Of a stretch of 64,000 bases of DNA, positions 3,147 to 33,692 are shown in pieces (position 1 is the stretch's first letter; each line of letters starts with the position of its first letter). The position numbers and the translations under genes were made by a program. The notes beneath the pieces are model-generated. The model made no database searches and was not told the DNA's origin. It was given only the letters and a program-made list of their open reading frames with translations. The stretch is from a virus (taxonomy: Duplodnaviria; Heunggongvirae; Uroviricota; Caudoviricetes; Schitoviridae): IMG/VR virus record IMGVR_UViG_3300024257_000004. The stretch is one strand, 5' to 3'.

Positions 3147-4622
3147 TTATAGTAGGTAAGCTGCGTTATCTACATTATACCTAGCTCTAGTTACAGCAAC
3201 ATAGTACAGGTATAATTCAGTTAGTTCATCGCTGGCTAGTAGTGGAGTAGTTCCATTACCCCTGCACTCTAAAATGTGTGACATTATACTGTCGATTGAT
3301 TGATTTACGTCATCCGCTAGTTCAACAGAATCGAAAGTTGTACCTTTACTTGTGTGTACCGTTAACAGGGAGAGGCTAGCGGTAGTACACTTCTGGTGGG
3401 ACTTAGCTGAATTATGTGCATCAATTACTCCGGCAGGTGAATGCGCGGAAATCATACGTAATGCAGGTTTAACGTCTGGGTTATCTGGGTTCTCTGAAGC
3501 TAAGTATGCCATACGTGACGGGTAGAGTTGTTGTAAATGTGTAGATTTACCCCATAGATCTGCCTGTCGCTGCATTTGTTTGTACTTAGGATTCTTCTCT
3601 TTATTACCTGGTTTGCATCTTAATAGCGCTAAAGGTAATTCGAACATCTGATTAATCTTAGCTGTAGTAGCTAGTTTATACGGCGTACCTGACTCATTAA
3701 GTTCAATCATTTTACCTATTAGTTCTGCGTTAGTACGAGTTAAATAGGCTGATGATGCGTATTCTGTCGGAACTACCGGGTATTCAAACCCAGTAAAAAC
3801 CATATCATGGTTAAATGTCGCCCTGCTAAATGCTTCTACACGTTTAGCTAATTCAGATTCGCATCTAAATGACTTAGTTAAGGATAATTCTTTAGCATCT
3901 TTGAAGTAGTCAAAAGCGTTTATACATCCCATGAATGAGAAAATAGACTGATAGGTATCACCTACTAGTACTTTCAGTTTAGCTGGGTATGCTCGTATAA
4001 TATCCAACGTAATTGGAGTTAAATCCTGACACTCATCCACAGCTAGTATGTCTGTAGTAGCAAGTTTAGTTTCACCGCTCATAACTTCCATATGAAATAC
4101 TTTAAGATAGAAAGGGTGAGTACATCCCATTTTACCTTCTACCATAGCAGTCATAATATCATTAGCTAATTTAACAGCTCCTGGTGTGTACTTATTTATA
4201 ATCTCTAGGTCATTTACGTCCATTTCAGTAGACGCACAAAATGTTTCAATAAGCTCAATAGCAGAGGGAGTCTGCCCAAATGGCTGATGAATATACTTAG
4301 GTATGTCCTTCCAAGAAATGAAAGATGTTTGACTTAGATACATAGTACTGCACTTGATAGTATTGTGAAATGCCAGTGAATGTAAAGTAGATACAATACA
4401 ATTAGAGTTCATAGATTGACGTGCTTCTTCAGCTTGCAATGTTCCAAAAACTAAATACCGGAATGACCTATTTGTATTATGTTCAAAGAACGCATCCGAA
4501 GCTTTCGACAGAGTGTACGATTTCGATGCCCCAGCTACAGCTTCTACTAATAAAGTATCTGCCGTTGGGTTTATGATCTCATCAACGATGTCTTGTTGCT
4601 GTTTTGTTAATTGATATGACAA
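3147..4622 (-). CDS. Superfamily 1 DNA helicase (UvrD/PcrA-like)
   Basis: 491 aa. Walker A-like AGASKSYT and DExx box AVDECQDL. The C-terminal motif VAVTRARYNV resembles helicase motif VI. Confidence 0.65.
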   Translation of the reverse strand: MSYQLTKQQQDIVDEIINPTADTLLVEAVAGASKSYTLSKASDAFFEHNTNRSFRYLVFGTLQAEEARQSMNSNCIVSTLHSLAFHNTIKCSTMYLSQTSFISWKDIPKYIHQPFGQTPSAIELIETFCASTEMDVNDLEIINKYTPGAVKLANDIMTAMVEGKMGCTHPFYLKVFHMEVMSGETKLATTDILAVDECQDLTPITLDIIRAYPAKLKVLVGDTYQSIFSFMGCINAFDYFKDAKELSLTKSFRCESELAKRVEAFSRATFNHDMVFTGFEYPVVPTEYASSAYLTRTNAELIGKMIELNESGTPYKLATTAKINQMFELPLALLRCKPGNKEKNPKYKQMQRQADLWGKSTHLQQLYPSRMAYLASENPDNPDVKPALRMISAHSPAGVIDAHNSAKSHQKCTTASLSLLTVHTSKGTTFDSVELADDVNQSIDSIMSHILECRGNGTTPLLASDELTELYLYYVAVTRARYNVDNAAYLL

Positions 4623-4645
4623 TTCTGGGTCCTTTTTGGTATTTA

Positions 4646-5734
4646 TTATTCTAACGGAGAACCGTCGTCATTACAGGCTCTGAAGTGATTACCTACAGGC
4701 TTAAGTGGTTTAAGGTCTTTTGATAAAGTTTCATACTCTATGTTCAACCAGCGTCCGACATTAGATTTAGCAATAGCTGCATCAATTAATCGTTCTTCTG
4801 CTGTACCTTTACGTTTAACGGAAAATTCAAGACCTTCCGGAGTTACACAAGTGTACACTGGATGGTTGTTCTTGTCTAGTTTAAAGTCAGTTACTCTGTA
4901 TTCGTCGTCTAGTGTTTTCTTGTACTTCCACTGGTCAGATGACCTAACGTTGTGCTTATAAAGTCCGCAGGGGTCCTTAATAACAGTACCTTCTAACCCT
5001 AGTTTCATGCAAGCATTGTAATGATCTTCAATATCTTGTAAAGTTTGACAGACTGTTCCGGTAAGTGGGTATACAAACTCAATCTTGTCTTGGTACATCA
5101 GCTCTGCCTCAACAATTAACTGTCTACGGTTAGTGTATGTATCATTAGAATCTGCAATATCAAAGATTGCAAACTCAAGCGATTTAGAAAGTTCTTTCGG
5201 CTTCTTAACCGCTGAAGTGATATCTTGAAGGTGGGTATTCTGAATATAAAGCTCACCGTTTAGTTCAGAGGATTCTAGTATAGCCATAATGTACTTGACA
5301 TCTGCCGCCAAATGTGGAATAGCCGGGTAGACTTCACCGCCACGACTAGTTAATACTAGCTCGTTATTCACTAATCTGTATGTAGCATTAACACCGTTAA
5401 GTTTTGGAGTGGAAATAAACCCAGGTTTAAACCGTTTAGATTCCCATACCTTAACTTTCATAGGTAATTGTACAGTTACTGGCGCAGACTGATCAATACT
5501 ATAACCAGACTTGATCTTCTTTTCCCATTTTGACTTAGCTTCTAGGTCAGCTTGTTGATTGTCAGTAGTTTCATTAGACTTACCGACATTCTTACCTTTA
5601 CACGAGGTAGTTTTAATCTGCATCTTGCCGTCTAGTTGGCCGAATTCGACTGTTATAACATTACCTAGTGTAGATATACTACAAACCTGGGTTGCTCCAG
5701 TTTTTGTAGCTTTATAAAGTGTCGGTAAAGTCAT
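4646..5734 (-). CDS. ATP-dependent DNA ligase
   Basis: 362 aa carrying the nucleotidyltransferase motifs of DNA ligases: motif I KLNGV(NATYR), motif III ELNGELYI, motif IV EGTVIKD, and a lysine-rich motif V. Confidence 0.7.
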   Translation of the reverse strand: MTLPTLYKATKTGATQVCSISTLGNVITVEFGQLDGKMQIKTTSCKGKNVGKSNETTDNQQADLEAKSKWEKKIKSGYSIDQSAPVTVQLPMKVKVWESKRFKPGFISTPKLNGVNATYRLVNNELVLTSRGGEVYPAIPHLAADVKYIMAILESSELNGELYIQNTHLQDITSAVKKPKELSKSLEFAIFDIADSNDTYTNRRQLIVEAELMYQDKIEFVYPLTGTVCQTLQDIEDHYNACMKLGLEGTVIKDPCGLYKHNVRSSDQWKYKKTLDDEYRVTDFKLDKNNHPVYTCVTPEGLEFSVKRKGTAEERLIDAAIAKSNVGRWLNIEYETLSKDLKPLKPVGNHFRACNDDGSPLE

Positions 5735-7529: not shown

Positions 7530-9833
7530 CTAAAATTCCCATCTCGCCACCTGTTCAATGATAGATATTCTGAATCGTTCATCGTCCATAGGATCATACC
7601 AGTAATCGTTGATTTCGTGCATAAGGGCGACCACTGATTCCTTAGTTGCCCCAAGGTCTTTAGCGTGCTTAGCGGCTCTGATTAACGCTCTAGAACAATT
7701 TGCTTCACACTCAAATGCATATGAGAATGTAGTAAGCTTGTTCTGTAACTGCGCGTCCATTTGAGACTTATTAAGTTTCTTAGGTTGTGAATTAGTTCCA
7801 GATAAAGCGTCAGATGAAGCTAATATAAACTCTTTGGCAGCTAATGGTTCTGCATCTAGTACTGATAGTACATTACGGTCTGCATAACTAAAATATATCT
7901 GCCCTTTAGGTAAGTTATCCACTTCAAGTTGCAGTTTATTTGCTATTGCTTGAATAAAGTATTTCCATTGTATGTCAGATACACTAACTACAGTATCTAG
8001 TTGCAGTAGTACTCTAAATTTAAATGGGTTATCTGGGTCCGACGTACGTGCTATATGGTGGTTAATGTCTTCAAGTAAGTAGTGAGCTTCCTCATCAGTA
8101 ATATCTGACGTATCGACATCAAGTACTACCCAAGAACACCCTCCTACGATATTATTACGACCTCTAACTCTGCCGCTAGGATTAGGATGCTTTTTACGAT
8201 CAATATCTGCACCGTTAAGTACATCCTTCAGCTCGAATGGTGTATAAGCAAAGTCATTAGTTAATAAATCAGCTAATTCTTCGAAAGAGGTTGGACCATA
8301 GTCATACCCGTGTACAGCAGTAGCAGCTACAAAAGCTTTAGCTTTCTTGATACGTTCATAGTCAGCATTTTCAGAAACTAGTTTCGCTACATTAGAATTA
8401 TCTACTTCTATATAGGATACGCCCATTTCCGTAGCAACTACCTGCTTTTCATAGCAGATGGCTGAGTTTTCTTTACAGATAGTGTATACGCCTTCTGGGT
8501 CATACGATGAAGCTAAATGTACTAATTCACACATATTAGTTGTTGAATCACCTTTAGGTGGTATGTATCCTAGCTTACGTAAGTCATGAAGAGTTATCAT
8601 AAACTTGTTATCAATAGCATGTAATTGCATATATTGAACAAATAGTTCATATGCTTCTTTCGATAATTGTTCTTCGAATGATAATAAATCCGGAGATAAA
8701 GTCTCTATAGTATTGATTGCATCGACATAATGAGATTCATTAATAGTTTCTGATTGATCAAGAATTGCGTAAGTACCTGATAATTTGAGGGCTAACCACT
8801 GCTTGTGTTTACGTGCTAGCTTACTTATAGGATAATGTGCATCTAAGTCTTCAGATTCTCTGGAGTTGTATTCAAGGTATATATCAAATAGGTCTTGAGC
8901 GCATGATTCCAGTGGTAATGTTTCCGGGATAGTATCAATATTAGTAACTAATTGATGAACATAGTCACCCACCAGTTCTTGAGCATGCGATACTCTTTCA
9001 CGTTCAGCTTGTTTATGTTTACGTACTTCTGTGATTGATTTGAAATTCTTCATCGGCACTTTATCTGGAGAGAAACTAAATAATGACCTACGTGCTAACT
9101 GTGTACTAAATACTGTACGAAATTTAGCCTTTATATTATTATCATAAAGAATAGCATCCTCTGAGCCAAATAGTAGAGCGTTAATAGGTAAAGCATTTAC
9201 TTCCCCGGTTTGATTCTCTGATGACTTAACAATCTTTGAAGGTATTTTACCTAAGTCATAACCAACTGCTATAGTTTTAATAATATCTATAAGTAGTGGG
9301 TTTGATTGTAGGTCAGTACCAATTTCAGACGTATTAACTGAAGCAGCTCCAATTGCCCCTTCTTCTAGGTGAACAAAATGTTGAACTAGTCCTTCTACTG
9401 TACCAAGACCAGCTTGTAGCGCTCTAGGTTTAGTATAGTAACTAATCCATTGATCAGTATTAGCTCCGTCAGCTTTAGCAGCTTCTTCGGCTTTTTGTAC
9501 AGCAAATTGTTCTCTGTAGTCTTCTATTATGTTATAAGATTGTTTAAATGCTTTTCTAATCATATTCATAGAACTATCTTTTGCTTGACCTGATCTTGCT
9601 AGTGCAAATGTAATAGCGTTACATGGTACTACAGTTCCGTCATGCAGTGTAATAGATCTACGTAGATGTGAAATCAGAGTAATTAACTCTGATAATGCTA
9701 TAGATAATCGTAAGTTATACGGAGCGTCTTCTGGGAGAATATCCACTGTTGCAGATACTACTTCGTGTGTAAGTGGTTTGAATGCCCCTTTACTCTCTAA
9801 GTGAGCACGTAGCATGTCTTTAGTTGTGCACAT
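7530..9833 (-). CDS. Putative replication protein with primase-polymerase (AEP)-like motif
   Basis: 767 aa with no Walker A. The C-terminal region has WVVLDVDTSD (hhhDhD), typical of AEP primase motif I. It sits between the ATPase and DNA polymerase genes. Confidence 0.4.
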   Translation of the reverse strand: MCTTKDMLRAHLESKGAFKPLTHEVVSATVDILPEDAPYNLRLSIALSELITLISHLRRSITLHDGTVVPCNAITFALARSGQAKDSSMNMIRKAFKQSYNIIEDYREQFAVQKAEEAAKADGANTDQWISYYTKPRALQAGLGTVEGLVQHFVHLEEGAIGAASVNTSEIGTDLQSNPLLIDIIKTIAVGYDLGKIPSKIVKSSENQTGEVNALPINALLFGSEDAILYDNNIKAKFRTVFSTQLARRSLFSFSPDKVPMKNFKSITEVRKHKQAERERVSHAQELVGDYVHQLVTNIDTIPETLPLESCAQDLFDIYLEYNSRESEDLDAHYPISKLARKHKQWLALKLSGTYAILDQSETINESHYVDAINTIETLSPDLLSFEEQLSKEAYELFVQYMQLHAIDNKFMITLHDLRKLGYIPPKGDSTTNMCELVHLASSYDPEGVYTICKENSAICYEKQVVATEMGVSYIEVDNSNVAKLVSENADYERIKKAKAFVAATAVHGYDYGPTSFEELADLLTNDFAYTPFELKDVLNGADIDRKKHPNPSGRVRGRNNIVGGCSWVVLDVDTSDITDEEAHYLLEDINHHIARTSDPDNPFKFRVLLQLDTVVSVSDIQWKYFIQAIANKLQLEVDNLPKGQIYFSYADRNVLSVLDAEPLAAKEFILASSDALSGTNSQPKKLNKSQMDAQLQNKLTTFSYAFECEANCSRALIRAAKHAKDLGATKESVVALMHEINDYWYDPMDDERFRISIIEQVARWEF

Positions 9834-10599
9834 TATAATTCCTTCATTATTTGTTTAATTTCCTCCGTAGAGCAGTTATTTGGTAGTTCAGTTTGACTAG
9901 CCCAGTCAGGGCCTATTTCTAGGTTAGCTTCGTTATGTACTATTTGATTATCCATAAAATCCTTCACCATAATTTCAACTAAGTTGTTATTTAGCCATTT
10001 AATTAAGGCTGGATCAGCTTTGATTATTCCATAAATTGAATCATAAATAGTCGACGTGACGTATAAGTCCGATTCAGGTATTTTAGCTTCTGCTTGTCTA
10101 TGGTGTAACTCATTAATTGAAATAGCAGTTAGTATTGACCAAAATTGTGAATTAGCGTTAAATAGCGTTCTTGAGTCTTTGTCTGGTGTATCAGAATAAA
10201 GCCTAAGACCTAATCCTATGTGAGTGTACCCAGTTTGTTTAACTTTATCGATTACCTTATTACGGAATGCTGATATATTTGGATACATCTTGTTATGGTA
10301 GTTATCAAAGATTTCCTGAGTAATAGTACCACCTTTATCAACATCAGGGAAGCCCCCATAAGCCAATTTGAAGGTTACAGGTTTAGACTCTTGTCTAAGT
10401 GCTCCGGCTTCTTCCGATGTCTTAGTAAGCTTTTTGAATAGTCTAGAAGCTTCCTTGTTATCAGTAAATTCTCCAACCATGTCTGCTATCCTATCCGGGT
10501 AGTAGTATGTAGCGGCTAATGAGTGGCCATCTAAGCCTTCAGAGAATACTGCGATTTTATTGTTATCCCCAGAAAGATTAGCTATAACTCTATCTTCTA
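9833..10599 (-). CDS. DNA polymerase I family (PolA), exon 2 (motif A second half, motif B, motif C)
   Basis: Carries motif B (KPVTFKLAYGG) and continues motif A (EDRVIANLSGD). It is in frame with exon 1 after removal of the intron, giving the spliced junction ...DYAAL|EDRVIANLSGD, which matches the PolA motif A DYSQIELRILAHLSGD. Confidence 0.75.
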
Positions 10600-11540
10600 C
10601 GTTTATATTCAACACAGCTCGTTAGGCTGTGCCGGTTCTTGCTTCGCTTACAGCGTTACAGGAAATCAAACTAACCCGGAGGATGCTGACTCGTTTGGAA
10701 CTCTATAAGCGAAGTGAACTCCTGCATGTTTCCATGCAGACTAGACTATATCATCATCCATGTAGGATGCTCACCACTTCCACCCACTTGGGTGTACTCC
10801 CTGCAAAGGGATAGTCGTTGCACGTTCCTCCGAAGAGGCTTCGCTCAGGATTGCCGGTAAATTAATACTACGGGTTTCCCTGAATTCGATGAGTTTGCTG
10901 TACACATTACTGCGTACAGGCGCTAGTTAATTAAGGTTCGAGACCAAAAATAGCCACCTGCGGATTTACGTAACCCACGAGTGACTTTGGATATATTTTG
11001 AAAAGGCACATTAGTTTGGCGAGTAGCTTCCCTATCGCTACAATAGGTAGCAATAAACTCACCAGATTTAGTGTACTGGTGTATCTCTTTAGAGCAGTGA
11101 TCATGAGTAGTTAACCCAGTATCAACTGCATGTTGAGAATTCTCCTGCTCAGTAGCCCATTCTAGGTTAGTTAAGCAGTTATTTAGCTTGTTACCATCGA
11201 TGTGGTTTACATGTGCCTTATTTTCCAAATTAGGTAAAAAAGTTTCACACATAAGTCTATGTACAGGTCTATTTCTACGAGAACCGCTATTGTCTACTAA
11301 TGTAACTATATAATAGTTGTTACTAGTATTTTTACTATTGTTTACTTGTTTAAGTATTTTAGAAGTTCCGTCTATTGTGTTTTTTCGTTTTTTGAGTGAT
11401 AGTACCTCTGTAGTCTCCCTACAGAGGTAATAGTCACTATACCCATTTATTTTTGTAAATTGTTTTTGTTCAAATACCATAGTAATCCTTTTTGTGTAGT
11501 CGAATTATAGGGGTATTTACCTTAAGTGTAACTTATGTTA
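10600..11540 (-). mobile_element. Group I intron (about 941 nt) interrupting DNA polymerase motif A, carrying an HNH homing endonuclease ORF
   Basis: Exon 1 ends with U and the intron ends with G (omega G at 10600). The 3' 320 nt (10600-10922) is GC-richer than flanking DNA and contains GNRA/UUCG-capped helices (CUGCAUG-GAAA-CAUGCAG, CCUC-UUCG-GAGG, GGG-AAA-CCC). An in-frame stop follows exon 1. Removal restores a perfect PolA motif A. Confidence 0.65.
10923..11480 (-). CDS. HNH homing endonuclease (intron-encoded)
   Basis: 185 aa with HVNHIDGNKLNNCLTNLEWATEQEN, an HNH motif followed by an AP2/NUMOD-like region. It lies inside the intron within the polymerase gene. Confidence 0.75.
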   Translation of the reverse strand: MVFEQKQFTKINGYSDYYLCRETTEVLSLKKRKNTIDGTSKILKQVNNSKNTSNNYYIVTLVDNSGSRRNRPVHRLMCETFLPNLENKAHVNHIDGNKLNNCLTNLEWATEQENSQHAVDTGLTTHDHCSKEIHQYTKSGEFIATYCSDREATRQTNVPFQNISKVTRGLRKSAGGYFWSRTLIN

Positions 11541-12603
11541 ACGCTGCATAATCTATCGAGAATACTAGGTACCCTGGAGGAGCTGTAAAGCACTTTTTAA
11601 TAGGCTTAGCGTATATTGACCCAGTTGAAGGCATATTAAGCATATTCGGCCTCTGTGACGTATAACGAGCTGATTTAGCTCCTAGTAGTTTGTAATCTCC
11701 GTAGAGTTTACCGTCTACTGAATATTTATAAAATGCTTCGATGAAGTTATTCTTTACAATTGCTCCGAATGAGAAATCGATAAAGGCTTGAGTTATTTCC
11801 TCAAGAACTGGATCCTTAGTTTCATGGTTAATTCGCTCTATTTGATCACGAGGCCATGATGGGTCACCTGTAGTTTTAGATGTTGTTTCAGATTCAAGAC
11901 CTAACCAAGCAAATAGTTCTGCTTTTTGTTGTGGTGATGATGGTAAAAATTCAGGTAGAAGTTTATCCATAGACACTGTTTTGATCTGCTCACGGTATCG
12001 TTGGTTAATTGAGTCTGCTTTAACTTTGGCTCTAGCTAATTGATTCATAGCTTCGATAGCTATTGGATCCGCTTCTGGCACAGTTTTATCCATTACTGAT
12101 TGCAGTTCAGGGCATATCTGTAAGTAGGCTTTAACTAATTTAGCTGTCCATTTAGGAATACCTAAATCTAGCATGTCCGTTGGCGGAGTTAGTTTAAATT
12201 TTGGGTAGCGTTTACGAAATTCTTCCATGTAGAAAGACCTATGAATAGTGTTACCGTTCTTGAATGTCTTCATAAAGTACTGTACATTACGTAGTTTAGA
12301 GTTGATTTCTTTTAAGTACTCATCTCGTACTTTAGGATATTTCTGCGCATGAAAGTCGATTATGATTTGGTTATTAGCTATAATTTCCTTTACACCAGAT
12401 AGTACCTCATCAAGAGTAGATTCCAATTCAGCTACACGTTCCATGTCTATAGGTAAGCCATTTGACATGATTTTGTTCGTATCTTCAATAAGTGGTTTTG
12501 CTATGTTTTCATAGAAGTAGTCTAGTTGTAATTCAGATGGGTCATATACTGAAGGGGCCGGTTGTGGTAGACACATCCAAGGCCGGTTCTGTTGGTTGCT
12601 CAT
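11541..12603 (-). CDS. DNA polymerase I family (PolA), exon 1: polymerase domain N-terminal part up to motif A
   Basis: 356-aa ORF ending ...FSIDYAAL(T). Motif A begins with DYAAL. It has its own RBS (AGGAG-N7-ATG at 12603). Confidence 0.75.
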
Positions 12604-29185: not shown

Positions 29186-29434
29186 TTATCCTTTGGTTCT
29201 ATATAATTTATTTTTATAAATAAATAGTTTTGTGTCTGGTTCAATATAACCACCAAGAGAGTCCACATAAAATAGGGTATCTTCTTGTCCTCTATACCCT
29301 TCAATATATTGCAGTGTTTCATTGGTTTTATTATCCACTAAAATTTTATGGAAGTTACCATCTTTGTTTGTCCCATTCCATGTTATATGCACTATATCTT
29401 TGCATAATAAGTTTTGTAAAAAATTTAACATCAA
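29186..29434 (-). CDS. Hypothetical protein
   Basis: 82-aa ORF. Confidence 0.4.
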   Translation of the reverse strand: MMLNFLQNLLCKDIVHITWNGTNKDGNFHKILVDNKTNETLQYIEGYRGQEDTLFYVDSLGGYIEPDTKLFIYKNKLYRTKG

Positions 29435-29780
29435 ATCTCCTTTAGTTATAAATTGTTTTTGAGACCGACATCAGTGTCGGCATCAAATCTACACACTAGA
29501 TCAGACTCCTACCAGAATTGCTCCGATATTGTCTGATCCATCTATAGACTGTTTTTAGTGTTTATGTGCCAGTCACACAATAAACTATGCTGATTTTCAA
29601 CTGAGCCATAATTGTTGTTACGGCAATCACTAACACTTCTAGGCCTTGCATCATAGCCTACCTTCGATACGACAAGTACAACAATACCCACCGAATTATG
29701 ATAGTTGTCTAAACACACAGTGAAACATTGCTTTAAGCCAGCAAACTCCACGATTTTATACTTATAGTGTGGCTCTTAAG

Positions 29781-29888
29781 TGGTGAACCTTTCAGGATTC
29801 GAACCTGAAACCGTGCAGGGTGGACCATCCATAATACGGGTAACGATCCCGGCCCCTCGCCTGCTCTACCAATTGAGCCTAAAGGTTC
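29781..29888 (-). ncRNA. tRNA-like element, 108 nt, with a GC-rich insertion in the anticodon region (noncanonical)
   Basis: The minus-strand RNA reads GAACCUU-UA-GGCUCAAUUGGUAGAGC...UCAGGUUCGAAUCCUGA-AAGGUUC-A-CCA. A perfect 7-bp acceptor stem, a D-arm, a T-arm (GGUUCGAAUCC) and an encoded CCA are all present. The region between the D- and T-arms is 54 nt instead of about 22, with internal hairpins (CGGG-AUCGUUA-CCCG) enclosed by a GCAGG/CCUGC helix. Confidence 0.5.
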
Positions 29889-30476
29889 TCGTATGTGTGC
29901 ACTATAACTGGTGCACACACCAGGATTCTTTTATATCCCGAATTCCCTTACCATCGGCAATAGCTTACGGCTATCAATCTGATAAACACAATAGGAAGAG
30001 GTTAGAAGTAAACTCCTGCCTCGTACTATTGATTATGTAGTGCGTCTGCCGTCTGATCACTACCCGTTTGTTCGTAGGCTACGTATTCGAGATAAGTGAA
30101 TATCCAATAACTCTACACCTGTGCTTTCACTAGCGTTTCATGCAGATCAGTTAGATCACCTAACAACTATACACCGTGAGCATCTCTTCCAGAGGTCGAC
30201 GTTTGGGAGACTCTATAACTGCTGTATAACGTGTACTTGACGGATCAATGTCTTTTGGGCTCTACTGTGACTTAGCCTAGGATGTCTGCTTGTTTCGGCA
30301 CGTTCCTAGGTACAGTTGATGTATAGCTGTTAGCTAATCTAAATACTCAAGCAGACCAAGTCTTGAGCAATCTTTAGGGTCAGCCCTCGACCAAAGGGTA
30401 TAAATTATATAGAAGTCTTTTAGGCTCATACTCAGGAGCTAGGTCTAGTTATTAGGGTCAAGGTGACCACACCTGG

Positions 30477-30719
30477 TTAAATAGTGTCTTTGATTCTAAT
30501 TATAAGATCTTTCAAGTCAAGGTATTCATCATACTCTGATTTGCTGAGTATATAACCATCAAGTGAGAATGTAGTTAAAGAATCAGGACTAGAATCATCC
30601 CAATTTAACAGTCCAGAAAATGTAGCTAGATTGACTTCTGTGCCTAATTTCTCACTAGCATATACTAAGAACGGTTTAGCGGTCTCACTTTGTAATTCTA
30701 TACGTAGTTTTCGTTCCAT
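30477..30719 (-). CDS. Hypothetical protein
   Basis: 80-aa ORF. Confidence 0.4.
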   Translation of the reverse strand: MERKLRIELQSETAKPFLVYASEKLGTEVNLATFSGLLNWDDSSPDSLTTFSLDGYILSKSEYDEYLDLKDLIIRIKDTI

Positions 30720-30931: not shown

Positions 30932-31344
30932 TATATTTCCTTTGTATTTTAATCTTCATTTATTACTATTAACTAAAAGCACCTAAAGGATCCGACTATA
31001 CTACATGCATTCGTATAGTCGATTATGTCGTAGTTTTCCAACAATGAAGGTCAAAGACCATTTACATACGTCCTACGCGTTAGTATGTCATATCACCAGC
31101 AAGGTTTCCCTATATGGATATTGTTGATGCTCTTAATTAATAATAAATAGTAGTGTAGATTTGCGTGTTCGCATTATACTGATAAAATTTCCCTTACTGT
31201 TAACATATAAAAATAATTTGTGTATAAATTTAAAGACTTCACGACTAAGTCATCTGGCTCTACTATGTGAACTGTTCAGGATTTAGTCGATTTGACAGTC
31301 TGTTTCTGCTATTGTATAGGCTCTATACTTCGTCTACCTATACA

Positions 31345-33454: not shown

Positions 33455-33458
33455 AAGG

Positions 33459-33540
33459 TTACCATATCAGGAATCGAACCTGAGACATCTTGCTTGTTTG
33501 CATTTTAAGGCAAGCGCTCTACCGACTGAGCTATACGGTA
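33459..33540 (-). tRNA. tRNA, type II (long variable arm), Leu-like with UAA in the anticodon loop; anticodon stem-loop irregular (4-bp stem, 8-nt loop)
   Basis: The minus-strand RNA reads UACCGUA-UA-GCUC-AGUCGGUA-GAGC-G-CUUGC-CUUAAAAU-GCAA-(14-nt variable)-UCAGG-UUCGAUU-CCUGA-UAUGGUA-A. The acceptor, D-arm and T-arm are canonical. Confidence 0.6.
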
Positions 33541-33546
33541 ATAGGT

Positions 33547-33692
33547 TACTCGAGTAGGGATTGAACCTACGGCCTTCATCGTGTAATGGTAAATCTGCTA
33601 GGATTTGAACCTAGAACCCCTAGACTAAGCTAGTGCTCTAACCAGTTGAGCTACAGATTTTGGATGACGCTCTACCACTGAGCTACCGAGTA
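33547..33692 (-). tRNA. tRNA-like gene interrupted in its anticodon loop by a complete second tRNA gene (outer gene; probable pseudo-tRNA or processed composite)
   Basis: The 5' half reads UACUCGG-UA-GCUC-AGUGGUA-GAGC-G-UCAUC-CA. The 3' half reads UUACAC-GAUGA-AGGCC-GUAGG-UUCAAUC-CCUAC-UCGAGUA-A. The acceptor halves (UACUCGG/UCGAGUA) and anticodon-stem halves (UCAUC/GAUGA) are complementary across a 73-nt insert. Confidence 0.5.
33588..33660 (-). tRNA. tRNA nested inside the anticodon loop of the outer tRNA-like gene (encoded CCA; anticodon arm noncanonical)
   Basis: The RNA reads AAAUCUG-UA-GCUC-AACUGGUUA-GAGC-...-CUAGG-UUCAAAU-CCUAG-CAGAUUU-A-CCA. The acceptor stem, D-arm and T-arm are perfect. 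The anticodon region (ACUAG-CUUAGU-CUAGG) has only a 6-nt loop. Confidence 0.5.

Follow-up and report, generated by a model that had tools for sequence, protein, structure and literature searches.

A gene-free, GC-rich island of a marine phage holds a tRNA-derived element without an anticodon arm and a conserved RNA hairpin

What is a kilobase of phage DNA for when it appears to encode no protein? We addressed this question for an island of 1042 nt within a 64-kb stretch of DNA (hereafter the window, meaning the whole stretch analyzed), which is part of a large uncultured marine phage. The phage genome spans at least 115 kb, the length of the longest related contig, of which the window covers 64 kb. 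Near-identical contigs of up to 115 kb occur in many JGI, ENA and Logan samples, and the closest cultured relatives are Alteromonas podophages, with an amino acid identity of only 45% in the primase. The window encodes a ribonucleotide reductase, a primase-helicase, NAMPT, a Band_7 lipoprotein and a DUF8224 protein, together with a family A DNA polymerase whose gene (parts at 11533-12603 and 9833-10615) is split by a group I intron (10722-10943, minus strand) carrying an HNH/NUMOD endonuclease gene (ORF 10923-11480).

The island extends from the stop of an 80-aa gene (30477-30719, stop at 30477) to the start of an 81/82-aa gene (29186-29431/29434, start at 29431/29434). It had been described from the letters alone as an ORF-free segment of about 1 kb with elevated GC, and both statements were confirmed. 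The longest ORFs reach 69 aa on the minus strand and 86 aa on the plus strand, no island ORF or six-frame translation matches Pfam or PHROG, and gene callers left the island empty on every near-identical contig retrieved (about 20 metagenome contigs). Recoding or a protein pseudogene was rejected, given that all six frames contain 19-31 stops with the three kinds mixed and that the translations lack a Pfam or PHROG match. The GC content is 0.428, compared with 0.364 for the whole window and 0.34-0.345 for the genes on either side; a GC content this high is reached by just 1% of 1042-nt windows, which apart from the island all fall on the tRNA cluster at 59.3-60.8 kb. Among GenBank and INPHARED phages we found no DNA similarity to the island, its tRNA-like element or its hairpin, GenBank matches being limited to a generic T-arm/acceptor similarity with tRNA-Arg genes. 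Homologs of the flanking 80-aa protein were found only within its own 90% cluster. A second gene-free stretch (30932-31344, minus strand; 413 nt, GC 0.32) lies between two 70-aa genes and is shortened to 276 nt in two related strains (L187 and L188; L numbers designate contigs); the sequence AAUCCUGAACAGUUCAC within it resembles the 3' T-arm/acceptor part of the tRNA-like element.

Table 1. Features of the gene-free island, with positions in the window
Feature	Position	Strand	Description and basis
ORF-free GC-elevated non-coding island	29435..30476	-	ORF, stop-codon, profile and GC analyses
Sigma-70-like promoter match	30493..30520	-	TTGACT, 16-nt spacer, TAGAAT; 10/12, consensus match only
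Perfect 10-bp hairpin	29893..29920	-	GUGUGUGCAC / GUGCACACAU; 72-nt segment z = -3.56
108-nt tRNA-derived element	29781..29888	-	arm-by-arm parse; Rfam tRNA D/T arms
Acceptor stem of the tRNA-like element	29882-29888 / 29785-29791	-	GAACCUU/AAGGUUC
D arm of the tRNA-like element	29863-29878	-	GCUC-AAUUGGUA-GAGC
Segment replacing the anticodon stem-loop	29815..29860	-	arm parse, folding
T arm of the tRNA-like element	29792-29808	-	UCAGG-UUCGAAU-CCUGA
ACCA of the tRNA-like element	29781-29784	-	encoded
Conserved RNA hairpin, 63 nt	29487..29549	-	covariation, folding z, covariance model
Small 7-bp hairpin	29464..29481	-	GCCGACA-CUGA-UGUCGGU

The island contains a tRNA-shaped gene whose predicted coordinates proved exact and whose perfect acceptor stem, D arm, T arm and encoded CCA stood up to an arm-by-arm parse (Table 1). 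All 16 stem pairs are Watson-Crick (7/7 in the acceptor, 4/4 in the D stem, 5/5 in the T stem). Both loops are canonical, the D loop AAUUGGUA with G18G19 and the T loop conforming to UUCRANY, and the 7-bp acceptor stem is followed by discriminator A73 and an encoded CCA. The latter is also encoded in all seven canonical tRNAs of the cluster at 59.7-60.5 kb and in an inner tRNA at 33587-33660. A strict T-arm motif is highly specific in this DNA, 10 of its 11 matches in 128 kb (both strands of the window) being tRNA or tRNA-like, which argues for a tRNA origin rather than a chance match. Judged by its sequence, the element is tRNA-derived beyond reasonable doubt. A crude comparison with the phage's own tRNAs revealed no near-identical paralog of its top half. 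The element is invariant in every near-identical contig that covers it, other strains ending short of it, and neither INPHARED phages, nor a pattern scan of IMG/VR, nor the relatives we fetched contain a homolog or variant; hence neither covariation nor purifying selection is in evidence for it. The literature searched holds no description of an element of this type in phages.

The bottom half is not that of a tRNA. A segment of 46-54 nt stands where the anticodon arm belongs, and no parse yields a 5-bp anticodon stem with a 7-nt loop (U33, anticodon, purine 37). The anticodon stem-loop is thus lost and the element cannot decode. The original prediction saw here a 54-nt anticodon region with internal hairpins. 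Hairpins can indeed be drawn: the 46 nt between D arm and variable loop form a single irregular 17-bp arm with an AUU triloop, and the four-way cloverleaf with this arm (-35.2 kcal/mol) lies 1.3 kcal/mol above the minimum free energy of -36.5 kcal/mol. The segment is nevertheless no more stable than its shuffles (z = +0.3 to +0.75), so a structured insertion is not established, and the element as a whole reaches a folding z of only -1.0 to -1.2. The firm result is an intact tRNA top half joined to a non-tRNA bottom half.

Automated classification reflects this split. ARAGORN leaves the element uncalled in its default, tmRNA and mitochondrial modes, and the Rfam tRNA model (RF00005) aligns the D and T arms only, skips 48 nt and, with 19.1 bits (E = 0.64 for 1.3 kb searched), falls short of its 29-bit threshold. 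This partial match is all that the suggested Rfam scan returned, both for the whole window at gathering thresholds and for the region at E <= 10. A tmRNA was rejected (negative in ARAGORN tmRNA mode, no Rfam tmRNA match), as were YrlA (RF02553; no match at E <= 10 in the region, and the topology of the element is unpermuted) and GOLLD, ROOL and other large ornate Rfam RNAs (no match at E <= 10).

An intron-containing tRNA, spliced to a decoding tRNA, had been put forward as one identity of the element and found no support. With relaxed settings ARAGORN does produce a tRNA-His(AUG) with a 22-nt insert, where the intron mode gives nothing by default, and the same phage tolerates a whole tRNA inside the anticodon loop of another. 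The relaxed parse, however, is poor: the insertion falls at 32/33, the stem contains a G.G mismatch, the anticodon has A34, the variable region is 14 nt long, and, as in every other parse, the 5-bp stem and 7-nt loop with U33 are missing. At 22-37 nt the insert would also be much too short for a self-splicing intron. The group I model (RF00028) finds no match in 29300-30600 at E <= 10, while returning 99.8 bits for the polymerase intron at 10722-10943. We therefore consider splicing very improbable.

The best-supported functional element of the island is not the tRNA-like gene but the 63-nt hairpin at 29487-29549. It comprises 27 bp closed by a GCAAU loop, with three G·U wobble pairs in the inner helix, and it is the sole part of the island conserved in distant relatives, with copies in L103 (4548-4610) and L112 (2430-2492) and a divergent copy in L106 (1233-1322). 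Window positions 29490-29554 are 81% identical to L103 4543-4607 and 82% identical to L112; between L103 and L112 the hairpin region reaches 95% identity amid unalignable flanks. Across the three copies 96% of cells are paired and four pairs have changed on both sides, a degree of pairing and covariation reached by only 3 of 500 column shuffles, and slid registers of the alignment drop to 30-50% paired; this covariation rests on three independent sequences and one divergent copy. A covariance model recovers the L106 copy at 27.5 bits, with the basal stem kept and a larger apical insert.

Folding analysis singles out the same stretch. The hairpin has a folding z of -4.8, and in a sliding window over 29450-29599 z is -6.1 on the minus strand versus -1.7 on the plus strand, the one outstanding signal of the island. 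G·U pairs make up about 21% of the paired cells, a proportion that accounts for the asymmetry between the strands and speaks for a gene-strand RNA. Compensatory changes and strand-specific stability, as expected of a structured RNA, are thus both found here. The conjecture that the region holds further structured RNA was borne out for this hairpin, through its covariation, and not for the kilobase as one RNA. Beyond the relatives, the covariance model found nothing in 1.5 Mb of IMG/VR loci, hairpin patterns in IMG/VR gave chance matches only, and the 53 matches to a hairpin 17-mer in GTDB genomes fell in coding sequence and were due to chance throughout. The hairpin neither contains nor adjoins a credible promoter. 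In L103 the hairpin ends 1-2 nt ahead of the 5' end of a tRNA; for L106, a loose scan with about 0.1 chance match per kb points to a possible ACCA-terminated minihelix, 3 nt upstream of the divergent copy.

The remaining parts of the island are less distinctive. The perfect 10-bp hairpin, whose stem ends 4 nt upstream of the 5' end of the tRNA-like element, marks a second, weaker folding signal. The small 7-bp hairpin stands just upstream of the point beyond which two strains, L172 and L113, carry different gene cassettes; in L172 its loop is inverted (CUGA to UCAG) with the stem kept. The 5' 588 nt contain no recognizable element, and folding over 30000-30300 is ordinary (z near 0 to +1.8). 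The sigma-70-like match would place a putative transcription start at the 5' edge of the island; sites of this type are as numerous in the region as shuffling predicts, and strain L187 has the -35 hexamer altered to TTAACT.

These observations bear on two other readings of the island. GOLLD and ROOL often adjoin tRNAs in phages, and the size, elevated GC, phage context and embedded tRNA-like element of the island would all suit one large structured RNA of that kind. We regard this as most unlikely: no Rfam family matches at E <= 10 even with permissive filters, nothing except the hairpin can be aligned with the relatives' islands, a long interior stretch folds like ordinary sequence, and strains of 95-97% identity tolerate a 120-nt insertion and a 10-nt deletion. 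A DNA-level site, such as the origin of replication that the original prediction also raised, would account for a gene-free region with several hairpins, and the inverted loop of the small hairpin is a DNA-level event. Yet the region lacks tandem or dispersed repeats and iterons, and cumulative GC skew, checked as had been proposed, runs straight through 29-30 kb and turns only near 56 kb, at the change in gene direction, so that an origin is unsupported. The region is moreover GC-rich and not AT-rich, and the conserved hairpin, relying on G·U pairs, is stable on one strand only. A role at the DNA level is accordingly the least probable of all the explanations that we considered.

We further compared the island among close strains. 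In its 5' part, L187, L188 and L201 are 95-97% identical to the window and carry a 120-nt insertion at window position ~30340 (L187 ~1565-1684; in L201 the first ~98 nt), whose 3' end forms a T-arm-like hairpin (GUAGG-CGCAAAU-CCUAC) followed by CGCCAUC-ACCA. These insertion-bearing strains also lack 10 nt (30285-30294). L201 matches the window at 100% identity over all positions from 30241 on, and this identity next to a divergent 5' part indicates a recombination mosaic. In L113 and L172, identity with the window ends just downstream of the hairpin, where other gene cassettes follow; L113 and L112 were the useful contigs of a scan of JGI metagenomes. Between L187 and the window, the 5' part of the island differs by 11 substitutions in 346 nt (3.2%) and the neighboring gene by 6 substitutions in 81 third codon positions, a hint of constraint on this part of the island that is not significant.

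More distant relatives, found through homologs of the Band_7 protein and only 35-80% identical in other proteins, also have gene-free gaps: ~980 nt in L103-L105 (in a rearranged context), 373 and 505 nt in L112, at least 1.4 kb in L106 and 1184 nt in L193. Apart from the hairpin, these cannot be aligned with the window. They contain elements that have canonical T arms and escape ARAGORN (two in L106, one in L112, two in L193), against a chance expectation of ~0.04, and reading and folding of L103 revealed a cloverleaf that sits on a stem of ~20 bp and has a T stem of 4 bp. A loose scan for acceptor, T arm and NCCA suggested additional minihelices, on which we do not rely because its false-match rate is ~0.1 per kb. 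The tRNA-like elements differ from one island to the next, and several resemble decaying cloverleaves at several stages of degeneration. A module of L193 (9237-9350) is permuted, consisting of a T arm, a closed 7-bp acceptor hairpin and a D arm; its match to Rfam YrlA is confined to the tRNA-like domain and, at 24.3 bits, stays below the threshold of 69. In the same contig, a T-arm fragment with UCUAACC-ACCA (9135-9163) is homologous to L106 367-392. Together, the indels and mosaicism of the strains and the differing elements of the relatives show that the island is modular and recombinogenic. In IMG/VR, 80 loci around homologs of a 664-aa neighbor yielded no related non-coding sequence, and a D-arm to T-loop pattern retrieved other insert-bearing tRNA-like elements, none homologous to the one studied here. 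Unrelated viral contigs (L092, L094, L095, L097 and L098; IMG/VR 3300045988 and 3300008551) carry tRNA-shaped genes of ~125 nt, ~120 nt without the 3' tail, in which the D and T arms are canonical and ~65 nt replace the anticodon arm; such elements are thus not unique to this phage.

Our tentative reading, to which we give a probability of roughly 0.4, is that the locus is a transcribed, modular island of tRNA-derived RNA in which the non-decoding element is probably still processed by tRNA-maturation enzymes. The island would then be a set of non-coding RNA-gene modules, read in the direction of the neighboring genes (minus strand), with small modules gained, lost and exchanged through recombination. 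The element keeps what maturation enzymes would be expected to read, namely a 12-bp acceptor/T-arm stack, a D-loop/T-loop elbow, the discriminator A and an encoded CCA. Host RNase P may cut at G1 (29888) and 3' trimming may halt at the CCA (29781), which would release a stable tRNA-shaped RNA of ~108 nt and punctuate the transcript, freeing a downstream RNA that ends in the conserved hairpin. Transcription and processing are inferred here, as would be any role of the tRNA-like RNA beyond that of a processing or stability module. We favor this reading because the GC signature is otherwise confined to the tRNA cluster, protein signals are absent, the top half is flawless, the hairpin covaries and such islands recur. 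Against it stand the random-like arm, the lack of homologs of the element and a promoter match no better than chance. The tRNA mimic YrlA of M. smegmatis, which is cut by RNase P and given a CCA in vivo (PMC4201824), provides a precedent.

The same top half could also belong to a dead tRNA gene, an ordinary phage tRNA whose anticodon arm was recently destroyed through insertion or replacement, the surrounding kilobase being decaying or recombination-shuffled DNA of a tRNA region in which the hairpin alone would be functional. This explanation is the main rival, and we consider it only somewhat less probable than our own reading. Phage tRNA sets turn over quickly. ARAGORN and Rfam both reject the element, its replaced arm is no more structured than random sequence, it is not conserved in relatives, the island is indel-rich and mosaic between strains, and the relatives' decaying cloverleaves fit neutral decay equally well. 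On the other hand, 16 stem pairs, both loops and the CCA are intact while the arm is wholly replaced, a combination that implies selection unless the event is very recent. Junk DNA of a kilobase would be unusual in a densely packed phage genome, the GC content has not relaxed towards the 36% background, and several divergent relatives likewise have gene-free islands with elements of this kind. Both descriptions offered originally, a tRNA-like RNA and a degenerate tRNA, are possible for the element, and they are inseparable since no variant or homolog of it was found. A further, unlikely proposal is that the lineage maintains a family of non-decoding tRNA mimics, which may keep the tRNA top half and CCA with the anticodon arm replaced or permuted. 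These might act as decoys against host factors or defenses that recognize the tRNA elbow, the acceptor stem or the CCA tail, nucleases that target the CCA tail or acceptor being an example of such tRNA-reading defenses (PMC12851939). Alternatively, they may be natural 'tRNA scaffolds' that stabilize and process small RNAs such as the conserved hairpin.

Comparison with known RNAs helps to place our preferred reading, that of a processed, non-decoding element in a modular RNA island. With a canonical phage tRNA the element shares the acceptor stem, U8, the D arm with GG, the T arm with UUCGAAU, the discriminator and the encoded CCA; it differs in having a 46-54-nt segment in place of the anticodon stem-loop, and in a 3-nt linker after the acceptor or, alternatively, an 8/4 split of acceptor and T stem. 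Species 1 and 2 RNAs of phage T4 are stable, non-decoding RNAs co-transcribed and co-processed with tRNAs, and their function has long been obscure; their genes belong to a functioning tRNA cluster, in contrast to this island, which lies 30 kb away from the main one. In the TMERs of MHV68 and in engineered 'tRNA scaffolds', a tRNA-shaped module provides processing sites and stability to a hairpin RNA that is attached to it or lies next to it. The former, however, depend on eukaryotic pol III and tRNase Z and the latter are artificial, unlike the phage island, where the link between element and hairpin is positional only (~230 nt apart in the window, with a tRNA abutting the hairpin in L103). 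The hairpin itself recalls PeSLs, conserved stem-loop cassettes at gene-module boundaries of T4-type phages, in being short, conserved and located where gene cassettes differ between related phages; in contrast to PeSLs it lacks a credible promoter, and its G·U content and covariation point to a role at the RNA level.

YrlA, one of the bacterial Y RNA-like tRNA mimics, resembles the element in form: it does not decode, keeps the D arm, T arm and acceptor, and has a long helix where a tRNA has its anticodon arm (Chen et al., 2014; PMC4201824). [quoted passage not shown] The element differs in being unpermuted and ending at the acceptor, where YrlA ends in a long helix, and the corresponding strand carries no recognizable Ro-binding motif. 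No match to TROVE/Ro60 (Rsr) was found among the window ORFs scanned, which were most of those with at least 150 aa and came from 64 kb of a genome that spans at least 115 kb.

Should the element be made and processed, it would represent a phage tRNA mimic that keeps only the half read by maturation enzymes, a half also read by EF-Tu-type factors and several immune nucleases. It would then bear on how phages cope with tRNA-targeting defenses and on the recycling of tRNA genes into new RNAs. If it is merely a broken tRNA, it illustrates the ordinary fast turnover of tRNA genes and serves as a warning that remnants can mimic 'structured RNAs'. The element is a real curiosity, a tRNA-derived non-decoding phage RNA for which the functional evidence is weak, and any function of it is putative. 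We propose the 63-nt hairpin as a candidate for a new RNA motif in marine phages.

The phage contains other unusual tRNA genes. At 33544-33692 (minus strand) one tRNA is nested in the anticodon loop of an outer tRNA, an arrangement for which the literature searched holds no description. The inner tRNA (33660-33587; 74 nt, encoded CCA) has a 6-nt anticodon loop, CUUAGU, and with its sequence deleted in silico, the outer halves are recognized by ARAGORN as a tRNA of 75 nt. The distant relative L103 shows the same nesting at 4612-4770, with an inner 6-nt loop UUCAUU. Under the tRNA-mimic proposal, the nested tRNA would be a product of the same tinkering. Another tRNA at 33457-33540 (minus strand; Rfam 61.9 bits) has an 8-nt anticodon loop, CUUAAAAU, for which ARAGORN reports a four-base anticodon, UAAA; it could be of a quadruplet or frameshift type, or non-decoding.
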